Positions 8,101 through 51,399 of a stretch of DNA of 64,000 bases are shown here, one piece after another. A program made the position numbers and the translations under genes. The first letter of the stretch is position 1. Every line of letters begins with the position of its first letter. A model generated the notes under the pieces. It saw nothing but the letters and a program-made list of their open reading frames with translations, ran no database searches and was not told the origin of the DNA. This stretch comes from a plasmid, in the sequence record NZ_CP023779.1. One strand, given 5' to 3'.

Positions 8101-8504
8101 GAGCGCTTCTCGGCGGTGACGAACTCCGCCTTGCGGCGCTCGTAGATGCTCTGAATCTCGGTAACGCCGCCCTTGAAGGCGTAGAGACCGGATCCGAGTT
8201 TGGCCTCCTTCATCGCCGCCTCGGCGCTGGCGCCGTTCTCGATGGCGTCGGCAATGATCTTGTCGGCGTCCGGGTGCAGGCCCTCGCCGTACAGGGCACG
8301 CATCTGCCCTTCGGTTACGGCGCCGGATACGCCCATGAGTTCGGCACCCCGGCCCGCCCACCGGCCGGGCGGGGTGCCGTGCTCGTTGTAGTAGTCGGTG
8401 AGACCCTGGCCGCGCGCACGTTCGCGGTCGGCGGTGGCTACTTGACGTGTCAGATACTCGTAGCCATCCCCGCCGTGCAGCGCGTGGATGGTCATCACGA
8501 TCAT
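2109..8504 (-). CDS. traA: Conjugative relaxase/helicase TraA (MobF/TrwC family) with long coiled-coil and duplicated C-terminal region
   Basis: N-terminal MTIHALHGGDGYEYLTRQVA relaxase start; central AVAVGPAGTGKTT Walker A with RecD-like helicase motifs; ~1000-aa Ala/Glu-rich C-terminal tail; start M8/M11 more likely than the TTG at 8525. Confidence 0.9.
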   Translation of the reverse strand: MIVMTIHALHGGDGYEYLTRQVATADRERARGQGLTDYYNEHGTPPGRWAGRGAELMGVSGAVTEGQMRALYGEGLHPDADKIIADAIENGASAEAAMKEAKLGSGLYAFKGGVTEIQSIYERRKAEFVTAEKRSPTRDEWLELRTDAGREHLANELGRKPSRDEIAKALNDEKRKARQAVVGWDCVFTPQKSVSILWGLGDDELRRAIWECHEEAMRDVLTRMEDNYALARRGRGGTRLIDAEGLTFAQYQHYDNRTGDMNPHTHVVVSSRVLGSDGKWSSLRADALIQATVSLSCQYNAALTGKLKRKLGLRFEERTKGRGKEPVLEVVGVSDEMIKHFSRRADIMARTEELVKQYRETHGRDPSKATQIKLAQQATLDTREDKPLPKTLREMIGEWDERARQFLGDGRTAEQFVDDILYLSHNPDAARPYEAARIATEVGLELGGKAAVLAADESELTGAIERALDGCTFGPQTTRAAAADEVRTLLSPGHEDHLLDELTEAIAARERTEYDPQRIAEEVTEKVSRRRATWAETHIRAAVEDRLAVCDFATDDDHRAAVEQIVSAVRDQHSVLLTVDPDVVPQALARRNGESVFNAPASTSVRYSSEAVLAAEERLQTAAQDPTAEFLTRSAVAKAIAQVEEESRGRTLGRRRGKPRRLKAGQRRIVEHFCTSGARLAVAVGPAGTGKTTALRAVVRAWQNDGRTVVALSQQMSAARVLGEEIGVPARTIDSLITRARSGVDVGLARGTMILVDEAGMASTHNLDELQRIADEHGAVVRWIGDPAQLSAVESGGALRLLAADTKAPELTEVVRFANPEEAAATLDVRSGDAERAWEFYKNNDRVTSGMVDELREKILAAHLADTAAGKSSLMMAATVADVYALNGAAQAAHALRGTVKSDGPHAGLADGHKGYIGDILVTRKNNHRLRITGGSRARTPVDNGDLWRVNAVHQDGSLTVVGTTHRGRVTLPARYVRDHTELGYASTVHRAQGMTVKRAHLLMNATLGRALAYVGLSRGQEFNGIYVATDALPDPALDHAPDEPAAEHDVFMRVLAREDDNLTATEVMRAEQARISDPARTREMYDYATELLGRARAEYLLDRSLPVVLYTEARRSERYEELLDTITVADALGMDSAALVADIATHGGEDLGDSLINARDAAAVLRARADHLIGDYVQSTTVPPAAAAAVETLAYSPTSDTDALTTATAALSGEEVLSTTRRAGRFVALRDAELPAVPPVPSRYPGMDLELAEFAEGLRARLLGTGAERLADNRPTVPVTAEEKEAVLDSYAEAANPVERRAKIQRDYEYYVRELGHERGRWLLDRAFPIALVRQIERGRGYPALLDTIALADAHGLDTNALMGSLIDGTDHGRTLITARDAAAVLRARADRWIAEHAITSVAPTATASLVTLGYDDQGHAAELTDLTVAVNTGTDVLAAQPRPARWRALDDLAPPRGLRPIPPEFPGMDMAMADYADELRRLLLELPDDAADWRARAAQTAAVTERGEEADDDLEREFEPEFHAAAPETGFDTDRAAEEPEPEDEWAEFTAAGARPIELPYPELSRTERAMRIHAELTAARERVGRLFEQAMWRTHPHQLAIEPKIAEMRLRMDALRPLVLAVRDVQQQWEEAEFDAITAEDAYQTALHAHPEAADEEFIASVEEQIDALDDDPALRARLAEQLELYRTAAAEAAAGAVAAEIARTKQDAAAARAYADELREQIQAAQEALDAAAGGEPVPTEDEVHTWRGVADDLVHAELNAARAEAQRLEMLSFHATHQAANELQADTGVSHSQAVWELENRYQEAAAARAAAGTTVADEGEPEIGPESPRSPVEEAEQAVEAEADQDAAPAVDEAPADPAAAREQLMLEQMQAEPIRMRSDTELDLLIRTLRRTASRRDDPTAWQGFHAAQSRVEQVRADHARLAEQVEAIEAAQAAESVADQAADAAAQASAATRDARQTLAGISALRPGARREAQQLVEQRAAAEQRTQDAVEVARAAARVAAAAARDAGAPQPQWAALLARAADRATLAAEMEAAERDDARDEEIRERAAQRAARAARDLETALAERDRRTALSPVDAAAEHRIRAAHAPATGPRSAGPTAEQQAAAQAEAERHRQHDHGPEL

Positions 8505-8525
8505 CAACGATAGCCGCAATTTCAA

Positions 8526-12188: not shown

Positions 12189-12419
12189 TCATGCGGCAGG
12201 GTCGGCCATCGCTGTGATGCGGTCGGGCCGGAATCCTGACCAGTGATCCGACCCGGCGACGACGACGGGCGCGGTCAGATAGCCAAGGCTGAGAACGAAC
12301 TCGCGGGCCTCCGGCTGTTCGGTGATATCAATGGCCGTGAATTCGATGCCCGCTTTGTCGAGTGCTCGATACGTGGCCGTGCATTGCACGCAACCCGGTT
12401 TCGTGTAAACGGTGACGTT
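12189..12419 (-). CDS. nrdH: NrdH-like glutaredoxin
   Basis: VNVTVYTKPGCVQCTATYRALDKAGIEFTAIDI...APVVVAGSDHWSGFRPDRI is very close to NrdH redoxins (CVQC active site, WSGFRP motif); GTG start with GAGGGG RBS. Confidence 0.75.
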   Translation of the reverse strand, partial: NVTVYTKPGCVQCTATYRALDKAGIEFTAIDITEQPEAREFVLSLGYLTAPVVVAGSDHWSGFRPDRITAMADPAA

Positions 12420-12549
12420 CACAATTCCCCTCCGCTCATCATTCCCCTTTTCCTGGTTAATTCTAACAATGCTGGCAGCGTCGAACAATGAATGTCGAAT
12501 AATTTCCGCAGAGTAATTCACAAGCGGGTTGCTGCCGTAACTTCTGTAA

Positions 12550-13236
12550 TTACGAAATGGCGTTAGAGTGCCGCTGGCGGTGTAGTTCGGTGCGCCGAAA
12601 CCGGCCGAATTCTGCGGAATTCCACCGTCTCGGAATGGTGAAACGAGTATCCGGGAGAGTGCTGCCAACGGATGTCAGTAATTCTCGGATTATTTCTGTA
12701 CTACGCAATCCCGGCGGCTCGGGAAACAACTCGCTCATATCGGCGCTGTCGGCGACGGCGCAAATGGCCTGCGAGAGCGGGAGCGCGCCCCGCCGGGTGG
12801 TCGCGTAGGTGCCTTCGAGGGGGCCGAACGTTCGGCCGTGCAGGTCGATCGGCGGCTCGACGTGAAGTGTGTAGGCGGCGCTCCAGTCGATTTCGCTGCC
12901 GGTGCGGGGCACGATGAGCGGGTACCGGCGTTCGAGCGCGTCGGCCACGATGCCGTAGCCGTTCGGGCTTATTTCGCGGGTGCTGAGCACGCCGTGAATG
13001 CCGTAGATGACGGGCCCGCGGGCGTCGTTGCCTGTTCCCATCGCCTCGTATCGGCGGGCCAGCTCGCGCACGGCGGCGTCGGGCGGGCCGTCCGTCCAGC
13101 CGACCATTACCCAGTTCCGCCACTCGGCGCGGCCGCCGCGCACGATGAACCGGACACCGGGCCAGCGGTCGGCGAGTTCGGCGCGGATGCGCCGGGTCAC
13201 CTCCCGCGCCCCGAGGATCCGCACCGGCGGTGTCAT
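12550..13236 (-). CDS. Hypothetical protein
   Basis: ATG at 13236 overlaps upstream stop (ATGA); the Arg-rich 160-aa N-terminal extension in the ORF track was rejected. Confidence 0.55.
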   Translation of the reverse strand: MTPPVRILGAREVTRRIRAELADRWPGVRFIVRGGRAEWRNWVMVGWTDGPPDAAVRELARRYEAMGTGNDARGPVIYGIHGVLSTREISPNGYGIVADALERRYPLIVPRTGSEIDWSAAYTLHVEPPIDLHGRTFGPLEGTYATTRRGALPLSQAICAVADSADMSELFPEPPGLRSTEIIRELLTSVGSTLPDTRFTIPRRWNSAEFGRFRRTELHRQRHSNAIS

Positions 13237-13676
13237 CGCGCGCCCCCGGCGGTTGTCGTCAGCACCGGCCCGGCGGCGGCGTCGATCTTGCTGCGGTATC
13301 CGGCGACGCTGCGGCGCGGTTCGACGGCCTCGGCGTCGTCGATGAGCTTGCGCGCCCGGTCGAGTTCTCGGGCCTTGTATGCCTTTCCGGCGGCCTTGAC
13401 CAGGCGGTCCCACTCTTCGGCGCGGGCCTGCGCGGCACGCTTGCGCTCGGCCGGGCTGCGGTGCAGTACCTCGGGGTGCTGGCGCAGGTAGGCGGCCACG
13501 GCGTCGGCGACCGGGCCCAGACCGTAGGCGGCCTGAAGGGTGCGCAAGTGTCCCTCGGTCACGTAGCGCGCGGCGTCGTCGACGCCGAAGGCGAACGGTC
13601 CGCCGTAGTACTGGGCGGCGAAGTCGTCGGCGGCGTACTCGATGAGCTTGCCCTCGACCGGGGTGAATTCGGTCAT
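13233..13676 (-). CDS. Hypothetical protein
   Basis: ATG with AAAGGA RBS about 40 nt downstream of operator pair (a). Confidence 0.55.
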   Translation of the reverse strand: MTEFTPVEGKLIEYAADDFAAQYYGGPFAFGVDDAARYVTEGHLRTLQAAYGLGPVADAVAAYLRQHPEVLHRSPAERKRAAQARAEEWDRLVKAAGKAYKARELDRARKLIDDAEAVEPRRSVAGYRSKIDAAAGPVLTTTAGGAR

Positions 13677-13709
13677 CGGAGATACATCCTTTCGGTCGAT
13701 AAGTCAGTA

Positions 13710-13737
13710 CCATAGTACTATGTCACCATAGTACTAC
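13710..13737. promoter_or_regulatory. Operator pair (a): CATAGTACTATG then 4 nt then CATAGTACTACG
   Basis: Perfect 12-bp palindrome plus near-copy, 35-65 nt upstream of the 13676 start codon. Confidence 0.6.
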
Positions 13738-13809
13738 GAGTAGGATAAGATCACCATGGGTGATCGGTGAGAAGGGGATCGGCGCGTATCACCCTCGCGC
13801 CGAGGGGTT

Positions 13810-14127
13810 TCAGTCTTCGGCTGCGGCGCGCTTCTTGTCCGCTATCTGCTGGTGCGTTACGACGCGCACCGCTCCGGCCTTGACCGGCTGCCACGGCTGG
13901 CCGCCGTTCTTCTCGCGCTCCAGGTTTTCGACATCGGCCAAGATGATGCTTTTGAGGTAGTCGGAGAACGATCCGGTGTGGTCCTGGAGCCAACCGAATT
14001 GGTAGGCGGCTCGCACCCGGTCGGCTTCGTCGGGGTCGAAGTATGCGCCGATGCGGCCCTTGTTCATGGTGGCGCTCTTGGTGTTCTTGGCAGCTTCGCC
14101 GCTGCTGCCCTTCCTCGCTCCCGGCAT
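13810..14127 (-). CDS. Ribbon-helix-helix DNA-binding protein; candidate repressor of the palindrome regulon or ParG-like; an alternative start at 14244 is coupled to the upstream ORF
   Basis: KGRIGAYFDPDEADRVRAAYQFG...SFSDYLKSIILADVENLE gives a clear beta-alpha-alpha RHH pattern; RBS GGAAAGG before the ATG at 14127. Confidence 0.5.
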   Translation of the reverse strand: MPGARKGSSGEAAKNTKSATMNKGRIGAYFDPDEADRVRAAYQFGWLQDHTGSFSDYLKSIILADVENLEREKNGGQPWQPVKAGAVRVVTHQQIADKKRAAAED

Positions 14128-14146
14128 GGCCGCCTTTCCCGCGCTC

Positions 14147-14175
14147 CCGTAGTGCTGTGGTGCCATAGTACGGGC
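14147..14175. promoter_or_regulatory. Degenerate operator pair (b) upstream of the RHH gene
   Basis: CCGTAGTGCTGTG ... GCCATAGTACGGG resembles the CATAGTACTATG pairs with mutations. Confidence 0.35.
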
Positions 14176-14240
14176 TCGACCGGGGCGGGCCGGGCGGTGC
14201 GCCGGCGCGCGGGTCGCGGGCTGTTCGGGCGTGGTGGCGG

Positions 14241-14420
14241 TCATGACGGGGGCTCCTTCGGGGTAGCGGCGGTGCGGCTGGCGGTGGGCAGGAACGGCCC
14301 GAATGCGGCGCGGCAGCGGTCGCACAGTTCGGCATCCGCGGCGGGCCGGGGGCAGATGGCGCAGCGGTCGAGCTGCTGCGCGGTGTACGGGCGGGGTTGG
14401 GTGGCGTGGGCGGTCACCTC
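14241..14420 (-). CDS. Possible small zinc-ribbon protein
   Basis: C-terminal CAICPRP...CDRCRAAF; stop overlaps an in-frame ATG of the RHH ORF (ATGA); the start is unclear. Confidence 0.3.
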   Translation of the reverse strand, partial: EVTAHATQPRPYTAQQLDRCAICPRPAADAELCDRCRAAFGPFLPTASRTAATPKEPPS

Positions 14421-14583
14421 GTGGTGTCTTTCTGGTGTGGTGGCGTGCGCGGGGGAGCTCCGTTGCTCCCCCACTCGGCACCCTGTTGTGCCTGGCCTGG
14501 TGGGCGGATGGGTCCGGACCTGGGCGCGGGGAGCGTCGGCGATCCCCACTCGGCACGTCGTCGGGCCTGGTCGGTGGAGAGGT

Positions 14584-15621
14584 CTACTGCTCGTCGCTGC
14601 GCGTGCCGCTGGCGTCGAAATCGACGCGCTGACCGGCGCTGTTGGTGAGGCCGGTGATTTTGTTGATGGGAAGTTTGTTGTTCCATCCGGGCTCGACATC
14701 GAGAGTCACCGTGGTCTTGTTGACCCGTAGCACCGCTTCCGGCCGGGGCCGCGATGACTGCCCGGTGTGCACGTAATCGCCGCGCCGGATCATGGCGGCG
14801 GTGAACACGACGGCACCGGCGGCGCGGGCGGCATCGAGTTGCGCACGCTCGTAGGCGATTTCGTCGGCGCGCTGCGCGATGGCGGCCTCGAGCCGTGCGC
14901 GGTATTCGCCGGTCGCGGGCGGGGTGGCCTGGGTGATCGGGTGGCCGGTCTGGCCGTTGATGCCGAGATTGCGGGTGTAGCCGTCGCGGGCCCGCTCGTC
15001 GGCGCGCTGCTCGGCCTCGAGCCGGGCTATACGCCGCTGGATCACTCCGGGGCATTCCGGGGCGGTCGCGGTGAATTCGGCGGTCTGGGCGCGCTGCTCG
15101 GTCGCGGCAGCCTTCGCCCGAGCCTCGCGGGCCTGCACGCCGGTACGGTCGGCGCACTCGTGCAGCCGTTCGTGACGACGCTGCGAATGATGGCCGATCT
15201 TGATCGGTTCGCCGCCGGGCGGCAAGGACTGGTGCGCGCGATCCGCGGCGGCCTCGGCGGCTGCGGCCTGGCGGTGGTGACGCTCGGCCTTGTCCCGCAA
15301 CGCATCCGCCCGGGCCCGGCGCTGGGCCGCACGGTCGGCGGCGACCTCATCGGCGGCGCGGTGGCGACGGTCGATCCGCACGCTCACGCTGTGACCGGCT
15401 TCGCGCAGCGCCTCGGCCGCACCGGTGATCGCGAGATTGTTCGGCTGGCGGTCGCGGGAATTGCGGACAATCCAGCCGCCCAGGCTGTTCGACCACTTCC
15501 AATAGCGGCGCCCGATGCGCCGCTCGACCGTGCACATGATCTCGTAGGTGCCATCGCCGCGGCAGTCACCCTCGAGCTGGGTGCCTTCGGCGGCGGTGTG
15601 GGTGATGGTCAGTTCGGCCAT
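14584..15621 (-). CDS. DUF3560 domain protein
   Basis: N-terminus MAELTITHTAAEGTQLEGDCRGDGT matches the characteristic DUF3560 start; RBS GGAGG 9 nt upstream; Arg/Ala-rich coiled middle. Confidence 0.7.
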   Translation of the reverse strand: MAELTITHTAAEGTQLEGDCRGDGTYEIMCTVERRIGRRYWKWSNSLGGWIVRNSRDRQPNNLAITGAAEALREAGHSVSVRIDRRHRAADEVAADRAAQRRARADALRDKAERHHRQAAAAEAAADRAHQSLPPGGEPIKIGHHSQRRHERLHECADRTGVQAREARAKAAATEQRAQTAEFTATAPECPGVIQRRIARLEAEQRADERARDGYTRNLGINGQTGHPITQATPPATGEYRARLEAAIAQRADEIAYERAQLDAARAAGAVVFTAAMIRRGDYVHTGQSSRPRPEAVLRVNKTTVTLDVEPGWNNKLPINKITGLTNSAGQRVDFDASGTRSDEQ

Positions 15622-15640
15622 TGTCGCGGTCCTCCTTCGT

Positions 15641-15686
15641 TTGCAGTACCGTAGTACTATGGCTTCATAGTACTGTGGTACTGCAA
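15641..15686. promoter_or_regulatory. 46-bp near-perfect palindrome (c) containing two CATAGTACT(A/G)TG-type sites
   Basis: TTGCAGTACCGTAGTACTATGG-CTT-CATAGTACTGTGGTACTGCAA; 21-bp arms with 2 mismatches, ending ~20 nt upstream of the DUF3560 gene RBS. Confidence 0.6.
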
Positions 15687-15705
15687 GGTTTGCCAAGGGG
15701 CGGTT

Positions 15706-16092
15706 TCAGAATCCGGTGACGTCGGCAGCGTCTTCGATACGCCAGACGCGCACGGACACAGTGACGGGTCTGCGGTTGCGGTCGTCGCCGAAAACCCATG
15801 CCTCGCCGTCGATTCGGCGGCCGGTGTCGACCAGTCCGGCAACCATGGGGCCGTGCAGTCCGCCCGTGTAGACCAGGGTGCCGTCCGCATTCAGGTAGTA
15901 GCTGCCCGTCCCTCGGACGAGATGGAAACCGCCGGGGAAGACGTGACCGATGCGGCGGGGCCCGGCGGGGGTGTCGAGATAGTCGCCCGAGCCCGGGCGG
16001 GTGAATTCGGCGTGCCGCGCGATTCGTTCCAACACCGGCGTGCCTCGGTCGGCTCCGGCGCTGCGGCTGGCGGTGGTCTCGGTGCGGTTCAT
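15706..16092 (-). CDS. Hypothetical protein
   Basis: ATG at 16092 overlaps upstream stop (ATGA); the N-terminal 250 aa of the ORF-track entry are Arg/Pro-rich and were rejected. Confidence 0.55.
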   Translation of the reverse strand: MNRTETTASRSAGADRGTPVLERIARHAEFTRPGSGDYLDTPAGPRRIGHVFPGGFHLVRGTGSYYLNADGTLVYTGGLHGPMVAGLVDTGRRIDGEAWVFGDDRNRRPVTVSVRVWRIEDAADVTGF

Positions 16093-16474
16093 AGCGGATA
16101 GTCCTCCTCGTCGTCGATGTATTCCGGTTCCTCGTCGCGGAACCACTCCGGGTCTCCGGACGGGTATCCGGCGTCGGGTTCGTCGATGAGCTCGTACTCG
16201 AGGGCCCACCGCGGATGAGTGCCCAGCACCGCGCGGGACGTGATCAGGTGCTCGCGAAACGCCTGTTCGGTGTCCCGGCACCCCCGCACGAGCTCGGGAA
16301 CCACTGCGCTGGGACTGATGCCCGAATCGGGAAAGCCATGTCCGGGTTGTTGAAAGCGGCCTCGGCGGCGCGCACGGCGGCCAGCAGCTCGAGCGCGCGG
16401 GCGTGCTCCGGGGACGAGTCGGCCGGATGCGGGTCCGGGTCGGGGGACATCCACGGTGCCGGGATTGAAGGCAT
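16089..16474 (-). CDS. Hypothetical acidic-tail protein, apparently frameshifted (possible pseudogene or sequencing error)
   Basis: Strong RBS AGGAGGAAG before the ATG at 16474 in one frame (MPSIPAPW...AEAAFNNPDMAFP); the C-terminal 80 aa with acidic tail continue in another frame from about 16320 and are ATGA-coupled to the next gene. Confidence 0.3.
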
Positions 16475-16580
16475 GACGCTTCCTCCTGGGGGCGCGGGAC
16501 ACGTCCGCGCGCTTGCGGGGCGGGTGATGACCCGGTGCGCGCGAGGACGCGGACACCCGCGCGCACCGGGGACTGTGGGG

Positions 16581-17015
16581 TTACCGCTCGTAGCGGTCGT
16601 GGACGCGCAGCACGTCGGGGGCCGGGTACTCCAGCAGGGCAGAAAGCACCTGCCGGAATTGGCTGGCACCATTGCCCGCGAAGTTGCCGCCGTGCGCGGT
16701 GCCGGGCCGGCGGTGGATCCGGCCGTCGTCGGTGAGCTCCACCGGCTCGAGGTGGGCCTCCCGTTCGCCGTTGCGCCAAATGCCCGCGCGCCGGACCACC
16801 ACGACCACCGGCGGCGCGTCGTCGCGCACGGGGTTCGCTCGCCACTCGGCGACCGGCACGATGGTGCCGTTCACTCGGGGGTCGGTGGTGTTGAGCACGC
16901 CGACCACGGTTACTCGGTCGTACTTCGCGGTGATCCCGCCGAGTGTGAAATCGGCGTCGGCTTCCGCGGAGCGGTAGACGCTGAGGGTCAGGCCCTTGAT
17001 GTCGCTGGTGGTCAC
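16581..17015 (-). CDS. Hypothetical protein
   Basis: GTG at 17015 with GGAG RBS; the ORF-track ATG at 17045 lies inside the operator and was not preferred. Confidence 0.5.
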   Translation of the reverse strand: MTTSDIKGLTLSVYRSAEADADFTLGGITAKYDRVTVVGVLNTTDPRVNGTIVPVAEWRANPVRDDAPPVVVVVRRAGIWRNGEREAHLEPVELTDDGRIHRRPGTAHGGNFAGNGASQFRQVLSALLEYPAPDVLRVHDRYER

Positions 17016-17041
17016 TTTCTCCGCCTCTCTTCGGTATAACG

Positions 17042-17071
17042 CCATAGTACTATGGTGTCGTAGTACTATGC
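17042..17071. promoter_or_regulatory. Operator pair (d): CCATAGTACTATGG then 3 nt then CGTAGTACTATGC
   Basis: Same palindrome family, immediately upstream of the 16581..17015 operon. Confidence 0.6.
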
Positions 17072-17102
17072 AATGTTGGGCGGTGTGATCGGCGCCACAG
17101 AG

Positions 17103-17414
17103 CTATCGCGCACGGATCCGGTTTGTTCGGCGCTGCTGCTCGGCGTACCGGTCGATCTGGTCACGGTCGACATCGTGAATCGCCAGCTCGCGAATTGCGG
17201 CGGCGCGAGCGCTGGACGGCAGGGCCGCGATGCGCCACAGCTCGGCGACCCATTCCCGTTCGGCCTCGAAATGGCGCTCGGAGTCGGTGACCAGGCAGTA
17301 CCGGGGGCGGTGTTCGTGGTAGTCGCGGCATTCCAGGCTCGCGGCTTCCTCGGGCGTCACGGGCGACAGTCGGGCGTATCGCTGCGGGCAGCGGGTCGTG
17401 GGATCCAGGGACAT
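17103..17414 (-). CDS. Hypothetical protein (three Cys; not a WhiB)
   Basis: ATG with GAGAGGAG RBS; 103 aa. Confidence 0.55.
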   Translation of the reverse strand: MSLDPTTRCPQRYARLSPVTPEEAASLECRDYHEHRPRYCLVTDSERHFEAEREWVAELWRIAALPSSARAAAIRELAIHDVDRDQIDRYAEQQRRTNRIRAR

Positions 17415-17461
17415 CGGGGCATCTCCTCTCGGGGGCGGGCGGGGATCGGCTCGAGCTCCGG

Positions 17462-17504
17462 GGGAGGCGCGCCGGGTAGCTAGCGACTATCCGGCGCGCC
17501 TCCC
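17462..17504. repeat. Intergenic hairpin with a GTAGCTAGCGACTA core (copy 1)
   Basis: 14-bp perfect stem GGGAGGCGCGCCGG / CCGGCGCGCCTCCC around the loop GTAGCTAGCGACTAT; between the DUF932 stop and the next RBS; no U tract. Confidence 0.4.
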
Positions 17505-17516
17505 GCTCTTGCTCGG

Positions 17517-18338
17517 TCAGCCCTTGTACTTGCGCATTTCCTCGGCGAGCACCCACAACGCGCGGTTGAGCTTCACGTTGCCGTCGATGCCGTTGACCGG
17601 CCGGGTCCGGGTGCGCTGGCCCTTGGCGGTGGTGCCACGCACTCCGCCCTTGGTCACCCGCTCCTGTACCCGGTTGAACACGCTCCACATGTCGTCTCCG
17701 GCGTCCTCGACCCGGCGCGGGGTGAGCAGCTGGCGGGCGGCGATCGGGGCCTTCTCTGGTTCGTCGTAGCGCAGCGCAAGGGCCGCCTTGGCGAAGGCGT
17801 GCTGTTCGCCCGTCTCCAGCGGCAGGGCCTTCATGTCGTCGCGTTCGGCCTCGACGAGCTCGAACTGATCGAGCACGGTGTACGCGCCTTCGATCACGTC
17901 GTCGACCACGTTGCCGGAGTGGCGAACTCGGATATCGTCGATCGTTTCGCCGCACACCATGCCGTTGGTGCACACGAATCGGAACATGCCCGCGAGCATC
18001 TGATACGAGCTGGTGCCGTCGTGCGAGTTCAACAGGATGATCTCGTTCGTCTCGTCGGCGCGGATCGCCGTTGCGTGACGCAGCCGGACCATGTGCTTGC
18101 AGAACTCGCGGCGGCTTTCGTCGCGCACCCGGCTTTGCGCCACCGCGAAGGGCTGGAATCCCTCGCGCTGCAAGCCGCGCAGCACGTCGATGGTCGGGAT
18201 GTAGGTGTAGCGCGCGCTGCGGTCCGCGTGCGCCTCGGTCGCGAAGATGCTCGGCGCGACGCGACGGATCGCGTCGTCGGTCAGCGGGTCGTCCGAGCGA
18301 ATCGAAACGGCGTTGCGGATCTTCGATGCCAATGGCAT
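17517..18338 (-). CDS. DUF932 domain protein (phage/plasmid-like, TIGR03299-type)
   Basis: 273 aa with MPLASKI start, NSHDGTSSYQ motif, and a size and pattern typical of DUF932; RBS AAGGGAG. Confidence 0.7.
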   Translation of the reverse strand: MPLASKIRNAVSIRSDDPLTDDAIRRVAPSIFATEAHADRSARYTYIPTIDVLRGLQREGFQPFAVAQSRVRDESRREFCKHMVRLRHATAIRADETNEIILLNSHDGTSSYQMLAGMFRFVCTNGMVCGETIDDIRVRHSGNVVDDVIEGAYTVLDQFELVEAERDDMKALPLETGEQHAFAKAALALRYDEPEKAPIAARQLLTPRRVEDAGDDMWSVFNRVQERVTKGGVRGTTAKGQRTRTRPVNGIDGNVKLNRALWVLAEEMRKYKG

Positions 18339-18389
18339 TGTGGCGACTCCCTTTTCGGTGTGGTTCCGGCGGTCTCTCCGTCGGTAACT

Positions 18390-18419
18390 CCATAGTACTA
18401 TGGAGCCGTAGTACTATGC
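18390..18419. promoter_or_regulatory. Operator pair (e): CCATAGTACTATGG then 3 nt then CGTAGTACTATGC
   Basis: Upstream of a ~50-nt leader conserved with site (f), then the DUF932 gene. Confidence 0.6.
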
Positions 18420-18518
18420 AACTGGTCGGATTGTGATGGCTGCCACAGCAGCCGAGGCCGCGGCGCTCAGCCGGGAAACGGGTGGCCCCGGCGCTCGGGG
18501 CTGTGGGTCGTCGGCGGG

Positions 18519-19071
18519 CTATTCTCGCCTGCCACCGGTGCCGGGCTGGTGGGCTTCCGGGTCGAACAGGGCGGGTTGGATCGGCGGTGTCGCTGCCGAA
18601 GGCTGTGCGGGCCTGCTACGGCTGCGAGCGGGGGCGCGTAAGGCCGGGGTGGTGCCGAACAGTTCGAGTTCGATCGGCGCGGGCGGTGTCTCGGATTCGG
18701 TGAGCCAGAATCGCCGCTTTCCGTGCGCATAGGCGCGGACATCGAGGCTGTACTCGAGGGTCGTCACCACAGGGTCGGCAAGCTCGGTGCGCTCGTAGCG
18801 CAGCGTCCAGGCGCGGCCGCGCGCGATGTCGTCGAGCTCCTCGCCGAGATGGGCACGGCAAACGCAAATCTCCCACGATTCGCGCGTCCCCCACGGGGTG
18901 TAGTCGAGCCGGATCCGGTGGGCTGCACGGACCTTGCACGCGAAACCGGTTCCGCCGGTGCCGGTTTCGGGGTCGGGTGGGGTCGTCCAGACAAAGCGCT
19001 CGCAGGTGGGTACCTGCCAGTTGCTCGTGATCGACCGGCGAGAGATGATCCGCGGCGCGTCGGTGGTCACG
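18519..19071 (-). CDS. Hypothetical Cys-containing protein
   Basis: GTG at 19071 overlaps upstream stop (GTGA); the Arg-rich N-terminal extension was rejected. Confidence 0.5.
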
Positions 19072-19477
19072 AGTAGAGTCCGGCGGCTTCGCGCCGGTCG
19101 GCGCAGGTGCCGCAATAGCCGTCGTATCCCTCGCCGTCGTCCAGGAGTTCGGCGCAATCCGCGGTGGCGCAGTATTCGGGCCACTGCGCGGCTTCGAGGG
19201 CGTTTACTGCGCCGTCGCCGGGCTGGTAGGTCGTCTCGATCGGGTTGCCGTGCTCGTCGGCCGCCTCGGGCAACGCCCATACCTTGCGGAAGCTCGCCGA
19301 TGTCAGTTTCACCGGCACCGGCAGGTCACAGACGTTGGTCAGCTCGACCGATCCGCCGGGCGTCGGATACATCTCCTGCCCGTCGTCGGTGTGCAGGAAC
19401 TTGCGCACGTGGGCCTCGCTGTCGGCCCGGATTACGAGGGTGACGACGGCGTACACGTCAACGGTGTAGGTGTTCAT
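19067..19477 (-). CDS. Hypothetical protein
   Basis: ATG at 19477 with GAAAGGTG RBS. Confidence 0.5.
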   Translation of the reverse strand: MNTYTVDVYAVVTLVIRADSEAHVRKFLHTDDGQEMYPTPGGSVELTNVCDLPVPVKLTSASFRKVWALPEAADEHGNPIETTYQPGDGAVNALEAAQWPEYCATADCAELLDDGEGYDGYCGTCADRREAAGLYS

Positions 19478-19626
19478 TGGGCGCACCTTTCGGGCTGCTG
19501 AATAGGCGCACAGAGCCCCGAACCGGACTCGCCGGCCCCGGGGGGTGTGCGGGGGAGTGGTGGGCCCCGATTCGGGGCCGGGTGGCGGGCCGCGCCGGGT
19601 GGCTCGGCCCGCCGATTCGGGCGAAC

Positions 19627-20217
19627 CTATGCGGTGTTCGTCCCGCGCTGAATCGCCCATGCCTGCGGCAGGTGTCCGGCGCGGGCGAGCGTGTCGAGCC
19701 GCTCGGCCACTCCGGCGGCCTGCGCGTACAGCTCCGCGCGGTCGTCGACATACAGGCCGGTAGCGGCCGCGTCCTTCTCGTTGTCCGGGTCCGCGTAGTA
19801 CTCCGCGGCGCGCTGCTCGGCCTTGCGCAGATAGCTACGGAACTCGGCGAGCAGCGCGTCCGGCTCGGCGGCCGCCGCTAGCTGGTCCTCGGCCTTGATC
19901 AGGGTGTAGCCGAACCAGTCGGCCAACATGTCGAGCACATCGCGCCCGGTCGGCAACGGCGTGGTCTCGGCCTGCTCACGCTCGGCCGTAGCCGCCTGGG
20001 TCTTGCACGTCTCGCAGTGGTTCGGGCATCCGCCGAACGTGCAGTCGAGCCCCTCGAGCCCGTCGAGCGGGTATCCGTCGACGCTGGTCGAATCCAGATG
20101 CCAGCGGCCCTCGTCGAAGTAGAAATAGATCTTGCCGTGGTCTTCGTAGCGATGCCCTTCGGCGTCCTGTTCGGCGGCTGCGGCGGCGTCGGCCTGGGTG
20201 TTTTCGGTGGTTGTCAT
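19627..20217 (-). CDS. Hypothetical acidic protein with CxxC...C motif
   Basis: ATG at 20217 with GGTGAGAGG RBS. Confidence 0.5.
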   Translation of the reverse strand: MTTTENTQADAAAAAEQDAEGHRYEDHGKIYFYFDEGRWHLDSTSVDGYPLDGLEGLDCTFGGCPNHCETCKTQAATAEREQAETTPLPTGRDVLDMLADWFGYTLIKAEDQLAAAAEPDALLAEFRSYLRKAEQRAAEYYADPDNEKDAAATGLYVDDRAELYAQAAGVAERLDTLARAGHLPQAWAIQRGTNTA

Positions 20218-20220
20218 GTC

Positions 20221-20281
20221 GGTGCCTCTCACCTAGAGTTCTGGGGGAGAGGCACCGGGTAGCTAGCGACTACCCGGTGCC
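20221..20281. repeat. Two adjacent hairpins, the second with a GTAGCTAGCGACTA core (copy 2)
   Basis: GGTGCCTCTC...GAGAGGCACC and GGCACCGGGTAG-CTAGCGA-CTACCCGGTGCC; same core as 17462-17504; intergenic inside an operon. Confidence 0.4.
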
Positions 20282-20347
20282 TATCTCGTTGACGGGCTTA
20301 CGAATTCCGGTCGGTGGGTGGTGCGCGCGCCGTGGGCTGCTGCGCCG

Positions 20348-20616
20348 TCACGCGAGGATGGTTGCGGCTGGGCGGCCGTGCTGGTCGACGCCGAGGATCA
20401 TCACCATGTCGGCGGCACTGATTACGCCGTTCTCGAATCGGTTGATGTGGAACGGAATTCGCGACGAACCGATCGGTGCGTACGCCACGGCCTCGCGGGC
20501 GGCGGTGAGCACCTGGGCCACCTCGACGGCCGGGATGGCGTTCTCGACGCTGACCGGGCAGTGGTAGCCCATCGCGGCGGCGGTGTCGGTGACGTCGATC
20601 AGAGCGAAGCTCATCG
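20348..20616 (-). CDS. Hypothetical small protein
   Basis: ATG at 20616 with AAGGGA RBS, downstream of the conserved leader. Confidence 0.5.
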
Positions 20617-20662
20617 AGTTTCCCTTTCGGTGTGGTTCCGGCGGTCTCTCCGTCGGTAACTT

Positions 20663-20691
20663 CATAGTACTATGATACCGTAGTACTATGC
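20663..20691. promoter_or_regulatory. Operator pair (f): CATAGTACTATG then 4 nt then CGTAGTACTATGC
   Basis: Followed by a ~46-nt leader about 95% identical to the leader after site (e). Confidence 0.6.
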
Positions 20692-21074
20692 AAACTCGGT
20701 GATGTGATCTGATACACATCTACCCAGGTCAGCGGCGGTTTCCTTCCTCCTCCAGGCTGCTATGGTGACCGGCTCGCAAACGGTCGATCCGCACCCGACC
20801 GCCGGCGGGGAAGCGGTCGCGTCGGGACACTTCTCGCGAGGCGGGGAATCCCGGTGCCTCCCGGGACAGAGGGCCGAAAACACAAGCGCGACCGTGGTTT
20901 ACGTGGCAAGCCTTCCCGCTGAGGGAAGGCGCGGCAGCCGGGGAACGGGCGCGGGCGGATACCCGGCCCGCGGGTCCTATCGGCCAACCCGCGACCCGTG
21001 CGCGCGGCCGAGTGCACATCGCTGGATGCTCATATCGCAATAGCGGCGCGGCTGAGGCTGCTGCGGGACATAGC

Positions 21075-26019: not shown

Positions 26020-26450
26020 TCAGCAGGGACCGATGGTTTTGGCTCCAGCGCGGCGGCGTCGTCTGGTGTCAATGTCGGCGACGCGGGCCTTGCCGGTGGC
26101 CGCGTCCTTCTCCAAGGTTAGTAGGTTGATCACCGAGGCGTAGAGCTTCACCTGCTCTTCCAGCTCGGCGCAGTGCACCAGCAGTTCGGCGTGTTTTTCC
26201 TTCAGCTTGTCGTAGTCGCTGGGCTCGGCCGCGGCTGCGTCGGCCTGGGCGGCTTTGGCGCGGGCTTGGAACTGTTCTTTGAGGTCGGTGTGCTGGTGGG
26301 TGAGTCTCCAGCGTTCGAGACCTGCTTCGACCGCGAGTTGGGAAACGCTGAGCCGGCCGGTGGAACGCAGCGGCGTGCCGTCGAGCAGCCGGTCCATCGC
26401 GGCCAAGAGTTTCTTGCGGATGGGGTCGGTCTCGGTCGTGGTGGTCACCG
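26020..26450 (-). CDS. Small protein translationally coupled to the recombinase trio (possible HTH); TnpC-like position
   Basis: GTG overlaps the stop of the third recombinase (GTGA); RLSVSQLAVEAGLERWRL helix-turn-helix-like segment. Confidence 0.45.
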
Positions 26451-28571
26451 GTGGTTCTCCAGGATCGTGTCGAGGCGGTCGAGTTCGTTCTGTTCGCGCT
26501 GGTGGCGGATCGGTGGGGCGAGTGGGTCGCTGATGATTTCGGCGAGTTCGTCTCGGCGCGTGCGGATTTCGGTGATGTCGCGATCGGTGCGGGCAATGTT
26601 GGGGCATCGGGGGCGGCAGTCGCTGATGTCGGGGGTGGTCAGGGGGTCGTCGGCGCTGCCACGGAGTTGGCAGGCGGCCTTGGTGGCGTCGAACACGCAG
26701 GTCATGCCTTTGCCGTGGAAGATCTGGAGCAGCGGGTTGCCGAGCAGGTCGCGGGCGTGCTTGCCGGTGGTGAGCACGTGCCCGGCGAACTGCTTGTGGG
26801 CGGCGGATATCCGCAGCCGGTAGTTGTCGGCGGCGGGTCCGCTGACACGCTCGCCGGTTTGCAATGCTCGGTGGTCCTCGGCGAGTTCGTCGATGCGGGC
26901 CAGGAAATCTTCGAAGGCGTAGTCGTCGGGGAATCCGGAGGCGAGATCACCCGCGTATCCCTGGAAAATGCGGGTTTCGACATGCGAATACTGCAATGCG
27001 CCGGCCACCACGCCGCGCGGCCGCCGCCGCAGAAACCATGCGAGTGTGCGCCGGAACCGGGACATGCTGATGGATCCATGAGGATCGTCCGGGACGCCGG
27101 AGATCCCGCGTTCGAGGCTGTAAGCGTTGACCCAGTCGATGAATGCGGTCAGGTCGACCGCTGCCTGGACCGACGTGCGCGCCTGGCCGACGCGGGTGAT
27201 GACGCTATATCGCTGATGGTCGAACTGGGTCGGAAACAGAACTTCGTGGTCGTGCATGCGCTCGAGGACTGCGACGGCCCGGGCGACCGGTTCAACGACC
27301 ACCCAGGGATCGCGTCGCAGAGCACCTGCGGGAATCTTATTGCCGTCGTCCCCGACGGCGTTTTTGAAGTAGAGCCCGGACATGAGCCAGAGACCGGTGG
27401 CGCTGTCGTAGTCGATGCAGCCGCGGCGGAGATTGAGCACTTCACCGACGCGAGCGCCGGAAAGATACGCGATGATCACAGAACAGGCGGTGCTCAGATG
27501 CCGTGCCAGGACCAGTGATTCGGTGTAGGTGAGCGTCCGGTCGCGCCAAAGACGACCGTCGAGCCGGGCGGTGATGGGCGCCTCCAGATAGGCATCGTCA
27601 GCGATCGGAATGCCGGACTCGAGCAGGAATTTGGCCAGTCCCTTGCGCCTTCGCAGGCCCTGATAGGCGCATTCGAAGATCCGTCCGAGATGCGTCCAGT
27701 GGAGCCCTATGGTGCCGTCGGGCTCTTTCCTGCCCGGCAGCATGCCGCCGGTGCCGCGCAGCCGGTCGACGTATTCGGCGGCGAGCCGGTCGACTTGGCC
27801 CCGCGGTGAGCGGACGAGCCCGGCATCTCGGCGCGGCCGTAGATCTCTGCCCCGCAGGAACATTCGTTCCGCGTGAGCGGCGAGGATGTCCTCGGAGAGG
27901 TCTTCGACGAACCGCAGTGACCACAACAGCAGCGATTGCATCGTGTTCTCGGTGATGCGAGGGGTGAGGTTGTGCCGGTCGCTGACCGACTTTCCGAACA
28001 ATTCGGCGGCGCGGTCACCGCCCCAGGGCATCGGCGGCGGCAGCCGCATGGCTTCGGGGACCGTGCTGCGATACGACCACAAGCGCCGGATATCGGTGAT
28101 CTGCCGGAACTTCCAGCGGACCGGCATGTCGGCGCCGGCGATCTCGATCAGGTAGTCGTCGAGCAATTCGGCGGTGACCTGCCGCAGCTCCGTGATGTGG
28201 TGTTCGTGCAGCCAGATCGTGAATGCGAGCAGCCGCGACCATGCGGTTTTGATGGTGCGAATCGAATATCGGCTGACGGTCGCCCGGTTCATCGGCACCG
28301 GGCAGTCGGTGTTGATCATCTGCCAGATCAGGTGTTTCATCGTCAGCCGCAGCGGGGCGGGGACCATAGCGAAGTTGATGCTGATCGCTTGGGCGTCGGC
28401 TTCGAACACCGCCTCGTTGAGATGCCACCGGTCCTCGCCGAACCGGGACAACGCAGCGGGGTCGGTGCCCGGGACCAGTTCCCTGTCGAACAGCACCAGG
28501 GTGTCGTTGTGCGGCAACGGATTTTCGATTGCCGGATCGGTGTGAGTGACGTTGTAGGCAAGGTGTGTCAT
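26445..28571 (-). CDS. Tyrosine recombinase, third of trio (708 aa)
   Basis: Box I LSGARVGEVLNLRRGCI; box II RFRRTLAWFL...LQYSHVETRIFQGYAG; ATG overlaps the upstream stop (ATGA). Confidence 0.75.
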   Translation of the reverse strand: MTHLAYNVTHTDPAIENPLPHNDTLVLFDRELVPGTDPAALSRFGEDRWHLNEAVFEADAQAISINFAMVPAPLRLTMKHLIWQMINTDCPVPMNRATVSRYSIRTIKTAWSRLLAFTIWLHEHHITELRQVTAELLDDYLIEIAGADMPVRWKFRQITDIRRLWSYRSTVPEAMRLPPPMPWGGDRAAELFGKSVSDRHNLTPRITENTMQSLLLWSLRFVEDLSEDILAAHAERMFLRGRDLRPRRDAGLVRSPRGQVDRLAAEYVDRLRGTGGMLPGRKEPDGTIGLHWTHLGRIFECAYQGLRRRKGLAKFLLESGIPIADDAYLEAPITARLDGRLWRDRTLTYTESLVLARHLSTACSVIIAYLSGARVGEVLNLRRGCIDYDSATGLWLMSGLYFKNAVGDDGNKIPAGALRRDPWVVVEPVARAVAVLERMHDHEVLFPTQFDHQRYSVITRVGQARTSVQAAVDLTAFIDWVNAYSLERGISGVPDDPHGSISMSRFRRTLAWFLRRRPRGVVAGALQYSHVETRIFQGYAGDLASGFPDDYAFEDFLARIDELAEDHRALQTGERVSGPAADNYRLRISAAHKQFAGHVLTTGKHARDLLGNPLLQIFHGKGMTCVFDATKAACQLRGSADDPLTTPDISDCRPRCPNIARTDRDITEIRTRRDELAEIISDPLAPPIRHQREQNELDRLDTILENHR

Positions 28572-30463: not shown

Positions 30464-31935
30464 CGGGCAGCCCCAACCGGGTCGCTGATCACCCTCGGAT
30501 GCGTCGCCATCGCGTCGGCAACGAACCTGTCGATATCGAATCCTTCGACATGGGCGAGCAGAACCTCCACCGACAAGCTCCGGAACGGCTCTAGGTATAC
30601 GAGTCTGGTCGTCTCGACCCGGCGGTGGCCAAGGACGGTCTGCACGAGGTCCCAGGTGTCGCCGAACTGGTCACGGAAGTCCCGGGACTCCTCTTCGTCC
30701 AGATGACCAATCTGTTTGGCGTAGAACAGTTTCCCCACCGAGAACCATCGCAATGCCGCGCTGTGGCGCGCCATGTGCGCGGTGACGTGGAAGTTGTCCA
30801 GCCCCTGGGCGGCAATACGCTGATTCGCCGTCTCGAAGGTGTGATGCCACCCGTGCGGATCTCGCGGCACCCCGTCCTCGTTCAACCACAACCACACCGG
30901 CTCCAGCCCCGCAGCGGTCTGCCTGAACATCCGACGGCGCAGCAGCGGCGGCACCATCACCCAGTCCCGCACCACCCCCGCGCCGGCCTTCTCGTCAGGA
31001 ATCACCACCGAGCCACGGCGCTTGCCGGTGCCGACCACCATCCGCCCCGGCAACCGCTCGTAAGTCCCGGCCGCCTGAGCATGCCGGACCGCCCGGGCCC
31101 GCGCCCCTTCGACATAGGACCAGACCGCGCTCAACGCCCGCCGTGGAATCCAATACGGGTGCCCATATTCACCTTTCGCGCATTTACCCGCCAGCTCACA
31201 GGTGTAGTACCCGCGTCCGGCTTCCAACGGCGGCAACTCCGGCAAGACCACGCTCGCCCATTCGGTCAGCCGCAAGGCTGTGCCGTAGAGGCCATCGGCG
31301 AACGCCGCGTCACGCTGCTCGTTGCGGCCGCGCCACGACCGATCGTGGCGACCCGACAATTCCCGGCCGCGCAATCCGACATCGCGCCACCGTGCCCACG
31401 CTGCCGGATCCAGCCACTTCACCGACGCCTCACGGCGTGCGGCCGGGAAGTCCACCTCGGCGAACACGTCGAGGACGTCGGTGTAACGCTGGGCGGCCCA
31501 GCCGTAGAACTTCTTGCAGGCCGCGACGTCCTTCGCGAACGTCGAGGTCCGCACCGTCGCCAGGTTCGCCGGATCGGTCAGCCGCCAGAATTCGAACGCC
31601 TCGGCATGCTCATCGTCAGCCTGCCACCAGGCACAACTCCGTGATTCCAGAAAATTCATCCACATCGCCAGCGAGTGGACGTAGGCGCGACGAGTATTCG
31701 CCGCTAGCACTCCGAACCTCGCCGACGCCAAGAACTGGTTCACACGGGGATCCGGAAACCCGTTCGGCCCCAACAAGAACCATTGACCGTGACGGACGCC
31801 CAACCTTCGGGCCCACGAACCCACGTCTCCAGCGATTCCGAACTCGCCCGGCAACTCGGGCCACGGCCGCTCCAGACCGAACTGATGCACAGACCAATGT
31901 CCAGTGCTCAATGCACGCTTCCCCTCTCGGCTCAC
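30460..31935 (-). CDS. Tyrosine recombinase, first of trio (491 aa)
   Basis: HMARHSAALRW and LGHRRVETTRLVYLE catalytic-region motifs; N-terminal SAM-like domain; GTG start uncertain. Confidence 0.75.
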   Translation of the reverse strand: MSREGKRALSTGHWSVHQFGLERPWPELPGEFGIAGDVGSWARRLGVRHGQWFLLGPNGFPDPRVNQFLASARFGVLAANTRRAYVHSLAMWMNFLESRSCAWWQADDEHAEAFEFWRLTDPANLATVRTSTFAKDVAACKKFYGWAAQRYTDVLDVFAEVDFPAARREASVKWLDPAAWARWRDVGLRGRELSGRHDRSWRGRNEQRDAAFADGLYGTALRLTEWASVVLPELPPLEAGRGYYTCELAGKCAKGEYGHPYWIPRRALSAVWSYVEGARARAVRHAQAAGTYERLPGRMVVGTGKRRGSVVIPDEKAGAGVVRDWVMVPPLLRRRMFRQTAAGLEPVWLWLNEDGVPRDPHGWHHTFETANQRIAAQGLDNFHVTAHMARHSAALRWFSVGKLFYAKQIGHLDEEESRDFRDQFGDTWDLVQTVLGHRRVETTRLVYLEPFRSLSVEVLLAHVEGFDIDRFVADAMATHPRVISDPVGAAR

Positions 31936-51265: not shown

Positions 51266-51399
51266 GAAACTCAGGTCCTATCGGGAGGCCCGATGGCCTC
51301 TGTCAGCGTAAACACCGGCGTCTACTGCATAAATCATATGCGAAGCGAGCCCGGCAGGGAGCTGGGGCCCTGCGCAAGCCGACAGTAGCACAACTTCAT

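Follow-up and report, generated by a model that had tools for sequence, protein, structure and literature searches.

The control of separate plasmid operons by a single plasmid-encoded repressor has already been documented (PMC6294495, PMC3937220), and the accompanying burst-then-shutoff behavior has been demonstrated for Reg576 of p576 (PMC6294495, PMC8708921) and for ArdK and StbA of R388 (PMC3937220). Here we describe a candidate for the same scheme in a 64-kb stretch of plasmid DNA from sequence record NZ_CP023779.1; the whole of this stretch is referred to below as the window. Five pairs of a 12-bp palindrome lie there upstream of minus-strand operons. Our reading, to which we assign a probability of about 0.6, is that these pairs are promoter-operators that would place at least five establishment operons of a Nocardia conjugative plasmid under one plasmid-encoded repressor, likely a ribbon-helix-helix (RHH) protein encoded in their midst.

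Reg576 of the Bacillus pumilus conjugative plasmid p576 is an RHH repressor that acts on its own promoter and on the strong promoters of separate establishment operons (PMC6294495, PMC8708921), as predicted for the RHH protein described here. Both systems have a dual short operator motif, to which in p576 two dimers bind in a highly cooperative manner, and for both a transient burst after transfer is proposed. They differ in their hosts, which belong to the Bacillota and the Actinomycetota, respectively, and in their operators, a dual TTATCCC heptamer in p576 versus twin 12-bp palindromes of the pattern CRTAGTACTAYG in the window. In addition, the RHH protein in the window, a putative repressor, is of the type Ib ParB (CB_ParB_C) lineage, and its presumed target promoters have CRP-like boxes and 5' hairpins as extra features. 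In the IncW plasmid R388, ArdK is a single repressor of PardC, Porf7, Porf12, Porf14 and its own Pssb, while StbA, the R388 partition protein, represses a set that overlaps that of ArdK (PMC3937220). The predicted likeness to R388 lies in the strong promoters, the negative feedback and the overshoot after transfer; a MOBF (TrwC) relaxase is common to both plasmids (PMC3937220). The two R388 repressors are, however, helix-turn-helix (HTH) proteins, their operators are unrelated to ours and the host is a proteobacterium.

Omega of pSM19035, ParG and the ParB protein of pCXC100 are type Ib RHH centromere-binding proteins of the same protein superfamily as the RHH protein of the window, pCXC100 ParB belonging also to the same Pfam family, and they bind arrays of short subsites (7-9 bp) cooperatively (PMC3074162). 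Omega is moreover both a global repressor of several promoters and a centromere protein. It accepts direct or inverted arrangements of its subsites. Unlike in these systems, no parA adjoins the RHH gene in the window or in five other Nocardia elements, the sites are distributed as one pair per promoter over 7 kb instead of one array, and they are perfect 12-bp palindromes instead of 9-bp direct repeats. KorA and KorB of the IncP plasmid RK2 likewise use short perfect palindromic operators (12-13 bp) at many promoters, overlapping the -10 or the -35. They differ in being HTH proteins with replication, transfer and maintenance targets, and in having one operator per site with no fixed tandem pair. 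The control logic, even with an RHH repressor, is already known; what is new in the window is the phylum, the ParB-type lineage of the RHH protein, a palindromic twin operator that contains both promoter hexamers, and a possible input from CRP. The repressor-timed establishment scheme studied in Bacillus and enterobacterial plasmids would then extend to the Actinomycetota.

Twin palindromes upstream of five operons

An earlier note, prepared from the letters of the window, had described pairs of a recurring palindrome, and five pairs were found, at coordinates that agree with that note to within 1 bp. The enrichment it expected is pronounced: the exact pattern CRTAGTACTAYG has 9 matches in the window versus 0.00 expected from dinucleotide shuffles, and CATAGTACTATG with at most two mismatches has 10 matches versus 0.12 expected. 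These 10 matches are exactly the five tandem pairs, each with a 4-bp spacer and with palindrome centers 16 bp apart; one member of the pair at 15650-15677 is imperfect (CATAGTACTGTG). An AT-rich 12-mer of this type is very unlikely to arise by chance because the G+C content of the window is ~69%. Relaxing the search to three mismatches added only four matches in the window, a degenerate copy at 14148, lone matches at 13604 and 19794 and a weak match at 50362. The five pairs and their putative promoter elements are as follows.

20663-20690, minus strand: P1, twin palindrome (CATAGTACTACG gtat CATAGTACTATG); -35 TTGCAT at 20693-20688, -10 TACTAT at 20669-20664, predicted start A at 20657
18391-18418, minus strand: P2, twin palindrome 5' of the DUF932 gene; -35 at 18421-18416, predicted start A at 18385
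17043-17070, minus strand: P3, twin palindrome 5' of g16; -35 at 17073-17068, predicted start A at 17037
15650-15677, minus strand: P4, twin palindrome of class 2, 5' of the DUF3560 gene; no TTG and no CRP-like box
13711-13738, minus strand: P5, twin palindrome of class 2, 5' of g11 and the gene for LPD29; the NrdH gene follows at a greater distance

Each of the five pairs is in an intergenic region upstream of a minus-strand gene, the distances from the downstream palindrome to the first start codon being 48, 52, 27, 28 and 34 nt for P1 to P5. Their placement ahead of minus-strand operons, as described in the earlier note, is therefore borne out (27-52 nt before the start codons), and the motif is not equally common in coding sequence, where the copies are two lone look-alikes at three mismatches. 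These two 12-mers, CGTAGTACTGGG at 13604-13615 and CGTAGTACTCCG at 19794-19805 (plus strand), are within the coding sequences of g11 and g21, respectively, and encode Q/E-Y-Y. The g11 copy is also kept in N. rhamnosiphila. Both are probably coding by-products.

The pairs fall into two classes. P1-P3 have a TTG next to the upstream palindrome and a CRP-like box; P4 and P5 lack both and have a flanking GTAC instead, which at P4 lengthens the dyad to an inverted repeat with 18-bp arms (15644-15683). P1 and P2 are near-identical over ~75 nt, including the leader. We considered the palindrome as a restriction or methylation target, as AGTACT is a ScaI-type site, and rejected this based on the lack of restriction-modification genes in Pfam scans of the ~60 predicted open reading frames (ORFs) of the window that were submitted.

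Conservation of the module in Nocardia elements

A scan for the pair pattern in one genome per species identified three Nocardia species (N. africana, N. higoensis and N. veterana), and beyond these the same scan returned only four single chance matches, in unrelated metagenome-assembled genomes. Protein-based retrieval added plasmids of N. farcinica and Nocardia sp. NBC_01503 as well as contigs of N. rhamnosiphila and of another Nocardia, and a short read-assembly contig. The motif recurs in related elements, as the earlier note had proposed to examine for plasmids: 33 pair sites were gathered from the window and seven loci, including elements of N. farcinica, N. rhamnosiphila, N. africana, N. 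veterana, N. higoensis and one more Nocardia assembly, ahead of homologous and non-homologous operons. A motif scan of viral and metagenome contigs gave only low-GC tandem repeats and chance matches and no further high-GC elements. The motif appears to be restricted to Nocardia elements. In the literature searched the motif string was absent, the only matches being to unrelated eukaryotic or primer sequences.

A position weight matrix was built from the 31 non-redundant pair sites, whose consensus is gTTG-CATAGTACTAYG-Gtnn-CATAGTACTATG-ga..TA (N5 before the TA). The palindrome positions are kept in 27-31 of these sites, except for the R/Y positions 2 and 11, and the left half of the downstream palindrome is equally well kept (27-31 of 31). 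Just outside the upstream palindrome, the three bases of the TTG are found in 27, 23 and 24 of the 31 sites, and a T (-1) and an A (+1), 6-7 nt after TACTAT, are each found in 25. Beyond the module the flanks differ among sites, and the module heads non-homologous genes in different species. As a sequence signature, gTTG-CATAGTACTAYG-N4-CRTAGTACTATG would mark genes for establishment in a family of conjugative elements of Nocardia; the majority of the marked genes have no known function and are candidates for anti-defense roles. The N. farcinica plasmid, NZ_CP086601, is from a human isolate and carries predicted sul1 and qacEdelta1 genes (locus 630-2449) in addition to the regulon, so the circuit may be relevant to the establishment of resistance plasmids in an actinomycete of clinical importance.

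A predicted promoter-operator

We consider it highly likely that the module is a combined promoter and operator. With the conserved A as +1, TACTAT occupies -12 to -7 and TTGCAT -36 to -31, with an 18-nt spacer between them, a geometry consistent with a housekeeping sigma factor and an actinobacterial TANNNT -10. The proposal of the earlier note that the repeat is both promoter and operator is strengthened by the 31 sites, in which TACTAT would serve as the -10, the conserved TTG would complete the TTGCAT -35 and the predicted start would be the T/A 7 nt on. The -35 would overlap the upstream palindrome and the -10 would lie inside the downstream one.

The case for an operator, as distinct from a promoter, comes from positions that a promoter alone does not need, i.e., the near-invariant palindrome positions in the promoter spacer (CATAG) and the dyad symmetry. 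Divergent sites keep or restore this symmetry; an example from N. africana and N. rhamnosiphila is CATAGCGCTATG. A different arrangement, one direct and one inverted half-site (CGTAGTGT-CGTAGTACTATG), is found three times in NBC_01503, all around the RHH gene; the unit that is recognized would therefore be the CRTAG half-site. Each module has four such half-sites at spacings of 7, 9 and 7 bp, and flexible arrangements of half-sites are typical of RHH operators. For comparison, pCXC100 ParB binds 9-bp repeats (PMC3074162) and Reg576 uses its dual heptamer as the binding site (PMC6294495).

These data also bear on whether a dedicated repressor exists at all. The good -10, the conserved -35-like TTG, the near-identity of P1 and P2, which suggests duplication, and the sigma-70 family factor gene that adjoins the sites on the NBC_01503 plasmid would all fit a strong promoter cassette that has simply been duplicated, its palindromes having arisen incidentally or serving a sigma factor or activator as binding site. 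We regard this as very unlikely, based on the fact that neither the CATAG in the spacer nor the G ending each palindrome (27-31 of 31) has a role in a sigma-70 promoter. Divergent sites retain or regain their dyad (e.g., TAGCGCTA), the flanks of the module differ and the genes that follow in different species are non-homologous, and at the RHH gene a weak copy is kept that has no -35.

The RHH protein as candidate repressor

We think that the RHH protein is reasonably likely to be the repressor of the module. It is encoded at the end of the DUF3560 operon, and the features concerned are as follows.

13810-14244, minus strand: candidate repressor, RHH protein, CB_ParB_C (type Ib centromere-binding ParB family); long form of 144 aa, alternative starts at 14163 and 14127
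14148-14175, minus strand: weak operator copy GCCCGTACTATG gcac CACAGCACTACG in the 5' region of the RHH gene
14241-14417, minus strand: CxxC...CxxC zinc-ribbon ORF, 58 aa, whose stop overlaps the long-form RHH start (ATGA); kept in 3 of 7 elements

A protein with 100% identity to it is annotated on a Nocardia terpenica plasmid of 71 kb, and precomputed Pfam tags assign PF18064 to all 7 of its homologs. A sequence match to the structure of pCXC100 ParB (3NO7) has an E value of 0.017, and 3NO7 is also the top Foldseek match of the RHH model, albeit at E=1.1 and probability 0.63. In the AlphaFold2 monomer, helices at residues 71-88 and 93-112, with predicted local distance difference test (pLDDT) scores of 75-88, follow an invariant NKGRIG-Y segment (the conserved strand region NKGRIGAY), and the N-terminus is disordered.

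The earlier note had singled out this protein as the best candidate for the regulator, and three lines of evidence now favor that prediction. Firstly, of the regulon proteins of the window, the RHH protein alone is present in all related loci in which the corresponding part of the cluster is covered, NBC_01503 included. Secondly, the weak operator, GTACTATG-nnnn-CRCAGYACTAYG, is kept in all 7 readable versions of the RHH gene, in a variant form in NBC_01503, with variation in the 4-bp spacer. Thirdly, half-site arrays accompany ParA-linked homologs, as discussed below. The degenerate copy that the note placed upstream of the RHH gene is accordingly real and conserved; its upstream position is less clear, since in 6 of the 7 versions the weak operator is within an open in-frame N-terminal extension of the gene. 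The start codon is ambiguous (14244, 14163 or 14127) because the CxxC ORF overlaps the upstream in-frame start, and what was called an upstream region may therefore be 5' coding region. The extension (MTATTPEQ...RTMAPQHYG) is shared by several Nocardia homologs. We rejected the possibility that the weak operator is a by-product of the peptide TMAPQ(H/Y)YG, as the variation follows the spacer and not codon positions, and as the NBC_01503 motif is in a different frame, which argues for a constraint on the DNA and not the peptide.

Two other products of the cluster were rejected as regulators. The g22 family is acidic, with a pI of 5.0, lacks lysines and was not present in the fetched part of the NBC_01503 plasmid; a homolog search with g22 returned only g22 itself. 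The CxxC ORF is present in only 3 of 7 elements.

ParA-linked homologs and the partition family

Two RHH homologs are encoded directly after parA, one on Gordonia hongkongensis p3, where it is unannotated, and one on a soil contig. In Gordonia p3, 21 RTAG/CTAY subsites are present in the 370 bp 5' of parA versus 3.5 expected (locus 3990-4300), with gaps that are mostly multiples of 9 bp and palindromes of the TAGnnCTA type (TAGAGCTA, TAGCGCTA and TAGCTCTA). The soil contig has CAGTAGCACTATCGCAACTATCGCACCTATCGGTACTATGG upstream of its parA (locus 810-870). Both arrays have centromere-like CTAYnG subsites with 9-bp phasing, and the two loci are probably uncharacterized type Ib partition loci. 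Because arrays of this kind ahead of parA are the binding sites of type Ib centromere-binding proteins, it is reasonable to suppose a family-wide specificity for CTAY subsites.

Given this relationship, the pairs in the window could chiefly be dispersed centromere (parS) sites, with the RHH protein acting as the centromere protein for a ParA encoded elsewhere and with transcription as a secondary or coexisting role, as for omega. The membership of the RHH protein in the centromere-binding ParB family and the similar subsite arrays upstream of the two parA-linked homologs are in keeping with this, and the ~7 kb of the 71-kb plasmid that is beyond the window could hold parA. We nevertheless regard it as distinctly improbable. 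No ParA homolog was found in the 64 kb of the window, and there is no parA beside the RHH gene in six Nocardia elements, where the upstream neighbors vary (DUF3560 or small ORFs); the RHH protein of the window would therefore be a relative of the family outside a type Ib par operon. In addition, every pair keeps a fixed register with a -35, a -10 and a start site and precedes a start codon by 27-52 nt, none of which a pure centromere needs. On the N. farcinica plasmid, a separate ParA is accompanied by a CB_ParB_C partner of its own and by different repeats, and the ParA-less paralog is present as well, in the regulon, an arrangement which suggests that the ParA-less paralog has specialized as a regulator.

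Proposed mechanism

In the mechanism that we propose, the RHH protein, a paralog of the type Ib centromere-binding ParB proteins without an adjacent ParA gene, would bind the CRTAG half-sites as cooperative dimers, four half-sites per module. Bound protein would span -36 to -8 and so exclude RNA polymerase. The genes under its control would be those for DUF932, DUF3560 and LPD29, possibly NrdH, and ArdC in relatives. The RHH gene, at the end of the DUF3560 operon, would be fed by P4 and would also have its own, weaker operator, creating negative feedback, because of which the promoters would be off in a resident plasmid. Transfer to a repressor-free recipient would release a burst from these promoters until the repressor had accumulated. 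RHH binding, repression, the burst after transfer and the stoichiometry are all inferred. The circuit would be compact, requiring one small protein and a 28-bp site, and points to the possible recruitment of an RHH protein of the partition type as a timer.

Several observations weigh against this reading. The -35, TTGCAT, shares only 3 of 6 positions with TTGACA, so that conservation, and not a consensus score, is the basis of the promoter assignment; for the same reason, a generic promoter scan called just the site at 15650 among the five, as TTGGCA-18-TACTAT, an alternative promoter in which the upstream palindrome serves as the -10. If one dimer bound each 12-mer, the 16-bp spacing would place neighboring dimers on opposite faces of the DNA, which is unusual for cooperative RHH binding, and it is for this reason that the half-site model is invoked. 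The CB_ParB_C (PF18064) scores of the RHH protein, 24.6 and 23.7 bits (E=2.7e-5 and 5.3e-5), are under the 27-bit gathering cut-off, and its AlphaFold2 model is only moderate (mean pLDDT 63), with the beta-strand not formed as a monomer. On Microbacterium and Arthrobacter plasmids there is no obvious repeated operator within 8 kb of distant RHH homologs (leading regions). The transfer origin (oriT) of the window was not located in a search for oriT-like inverted repeats at 8.4-12.3 kb, and the N. farcinica relative has no TrwC match, so that a leading region can be presumed for N. rhamnosiphila and the window only. Finally, operators of HTH controller proteins have a similar architecture, with twin 12-bp palindromes 4 bp apart, and the window encodes HTH candidates, a tandem-HTH Xre protein (51716-52168) and an ImmR-like protein (50831-51265).

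These last points raise the possibility that the promoter-operators are as we describe and the repressor is another, either a dimeric HTH protein of the plasmid or a host factor, with the RHH protein merely one of the regulated products. Two homologs of the tandem-HTH protein on the N. farcinica plasmid are also consistent with this explanation, which we consider unlikely. No copy of the motif (at most three mismatches) is near any HTH gene in the window; instead, different AT-rich repeats are found just upstream of these genes, two copies of GTCTGAAAATAGA at 52239-52264 and two of TGGTAnnnnnTTTAAAAA at 51399-51436. A homolog of the tandem-HTH protein was not found in the fetched parts of the other motif-bearing loci, whereas the RHH protein is in every locus that covers its position, and the half-site arrays at ParA-linked homologs point to the RHH family. 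As a separate observation, the ImmR-like gene is paired with a gene for an ImmA-like M78 peptidase (50312-50773), with the tandem-HTH Xre gene nearby, and the conjugation genes probably have a switch of their own in this region.

CRP-like boxes and 5' hairpins

Two additional features accompany some of the predicted promoters, the first being a CRP/FNR-like box and the second a hairpin at the start of the predicted transcript.

20703-20718, minus strand: TGTGTatcagaTCACA, a CRP/FNR-like box 9 nt 5' of the -35 of P1
18432-18447, minus strand: TGTGGcagccaTCACA, a CRP/FNR-like box 10 nt 5' of the -35 of P2
17084-17099, minus strand: TGTGGcgccgaTCACA, a CRP/FNR-like box 10 nt 5' of the -35 of P3
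20638-20656, minus strand: predicted 5'-terminal mRNA hairpin CCGACGG-AGAGA-CCGCCGG, beginning at +2 of the P1 transcript
18366-18384, minus strand: predicted 5'-terminal mRNA hairpin of the P2 transcript, the same as that of P1

The pattern TGTGN7TCACA has three matches in the 64 kb of the window versus 0.28 expected, and all three are at P1-P3; P4 and P5 have no CRP-like box. Such boxes are present at about half of the 31 sites, i.e., also at related Nocardia promoters, and their center is predicted to be near -54.5. The CRP consensus, TGTGA-N6-TCACA, is valid also for Mycobacterium tuberculosis CRP (PMC4117774), and relative to this dyad the left half of the boxes in the window is imperfect (TGTGT/TGTGG). 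The boxes suggest an input from host CRP. An elaboration that we consider rather improbable is that a ParB-type RHH protein has been freed from ParA, that the twin palindromes are both burst-timing operators and dispersed centromere or pairing sites, like those of omega, and that host CRP gates the burst via TGTGA-N6-TCACA, coupling establishment to the cyclic AMP state of the recipient.

The hairpin, with a 7-bp stem and a 5-nt purine loop, is predicted for about half of the transcripts, including those from many sites in related loci (L002-L005, L009, L014 and L015). Its stem variants are compensatory (CCGACGG/CCGTCGG, CCGGCGG/CCGCCGG, UCGGCGG/CCGCCGA and GGGG/CCCC, with A-U to G-C changes among them), and it is probably a stabilizing stem-loop. 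An Rfam scan of 8-24 kb gave nothing other than one microRNA match at E=0.71.

Operons and plasmid context

Operons were delineated from gene calls based on G+C at third codon positions (GC3), and domains were assigned by Pfam scans.

19067-20614, minus strand: P1 operon, g22 (88 aa, 20614-20348), g21 (20217-19627) and g20 (19477-19067)
17103-18338, minus strand: P2 operon, DUF932 gene (18338-17517) and g17 (17414-17103)
15706-17015, minus strand: P3 operon, g16 (17015-16581), g15 and g14
14584-15621, minus strand: DUF3560 gene, the first of the P4 operon, followed by the 58-aa CxxC ORF and the RHH gene
12189-13676, minus strand: P5 operon, g11 (13676-13233) and the LPD29 gene (13224-12550), with the NrdH glutaredoxin gene (12422-12189) after them
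2109-8525, minus strand: TrwC-type (MOBF) relaxase-helicase, 2138 aa, a context gene

The DUF932 and DUF3560 genes named in the earlier note were both matched by Pfam. No Pfam match was obtained for g22, g21 or g20 of the P1 operon, and a homolog of g16 in a related locus is tagged DUF8317. The identification of an NrdH-type glutaredoxin (12422-12189, Pfam E=7e-16) was likewise upheld. Its assignment to the regulon is less secure, as the gene is 1.3 kb downstream of the pair at 13711 and has an AT-rich upstream region of its own without the palindrome, because of which NrdH may be expressed independently of the regulon. This region, a 127-nt stretch at 12423-12549 on the minus strand, has a promoter-like TTGTTC-17-TAGAAT.

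The designation of the regulon as plasmid-borne is well founded, given the complete identity of the RHH protein to its N. terpenica plasmid counterpart and the presence in the window of the TrwC relaxase and of a conjugation-type gene cluster (52.9-64 kb) common to other Nocardia plasmids. The window also encodes an SSB. In relatives the pair module also heads ArdC_N, ParB_N and DUF6573 genes, and their set includes SSB. The DUF932, DUF3560, LPD29 and NrdH genes of the window, together with ArdC_N, ParB_N and SSB in relatives, are typical of plasmid leading or establishment regions, for which a gene set of this type is characteristic (PMC11541004). A megablast search of the region against plasmid and phage collections gave no match.

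Some 4 kb separate the gene cluster from the TrwC gene, which lies in the direction of transcription of the regulon, as leading-region genes point to the relaxase gene (PMC11541004). This orientation would also suit pairs that act as hairpins on the incoming single strand, as promoter or priming signals like Frpo/ssi of F-type leading regions, and each pair can indeed be folded as single-stranded DNA into a stem of 12 bp closed by a loop of 4 nt (-7 to -8 kcal/mol), or at 15650 into an 18-bp stem (-13.3 kcal/mol). We consider such a role extremely unlikely. The hairpin is not independent evidence, as it follows automatically from two adjacent copies of a palindrome, and it cannot rebuild a promoter with a 17-18 bp spacer because the -35 palindrome pairs with the -10 palindrome. 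Furthermore, established single-strand promoters are much longer imperfect hairpins than these stems of 12 bp (18 bp at one site), and the search at 8.4-12.3 kb did not locate oriT.

Two minor observations concern the surroundings of the regulon. A perfect 17-bp palindrome, GATCACC-CAT-GGTGATC, is situated at 13749-13765, between the RHH stop codon and P5, and could be a terminator or another binding site. At 26445-31710 (minus strand), between the regulon side and the rest of the plasmid, there are three successive large ORFs (708, 605 and 416 aa), which may be a block of recombinase-like mobile-element genes.

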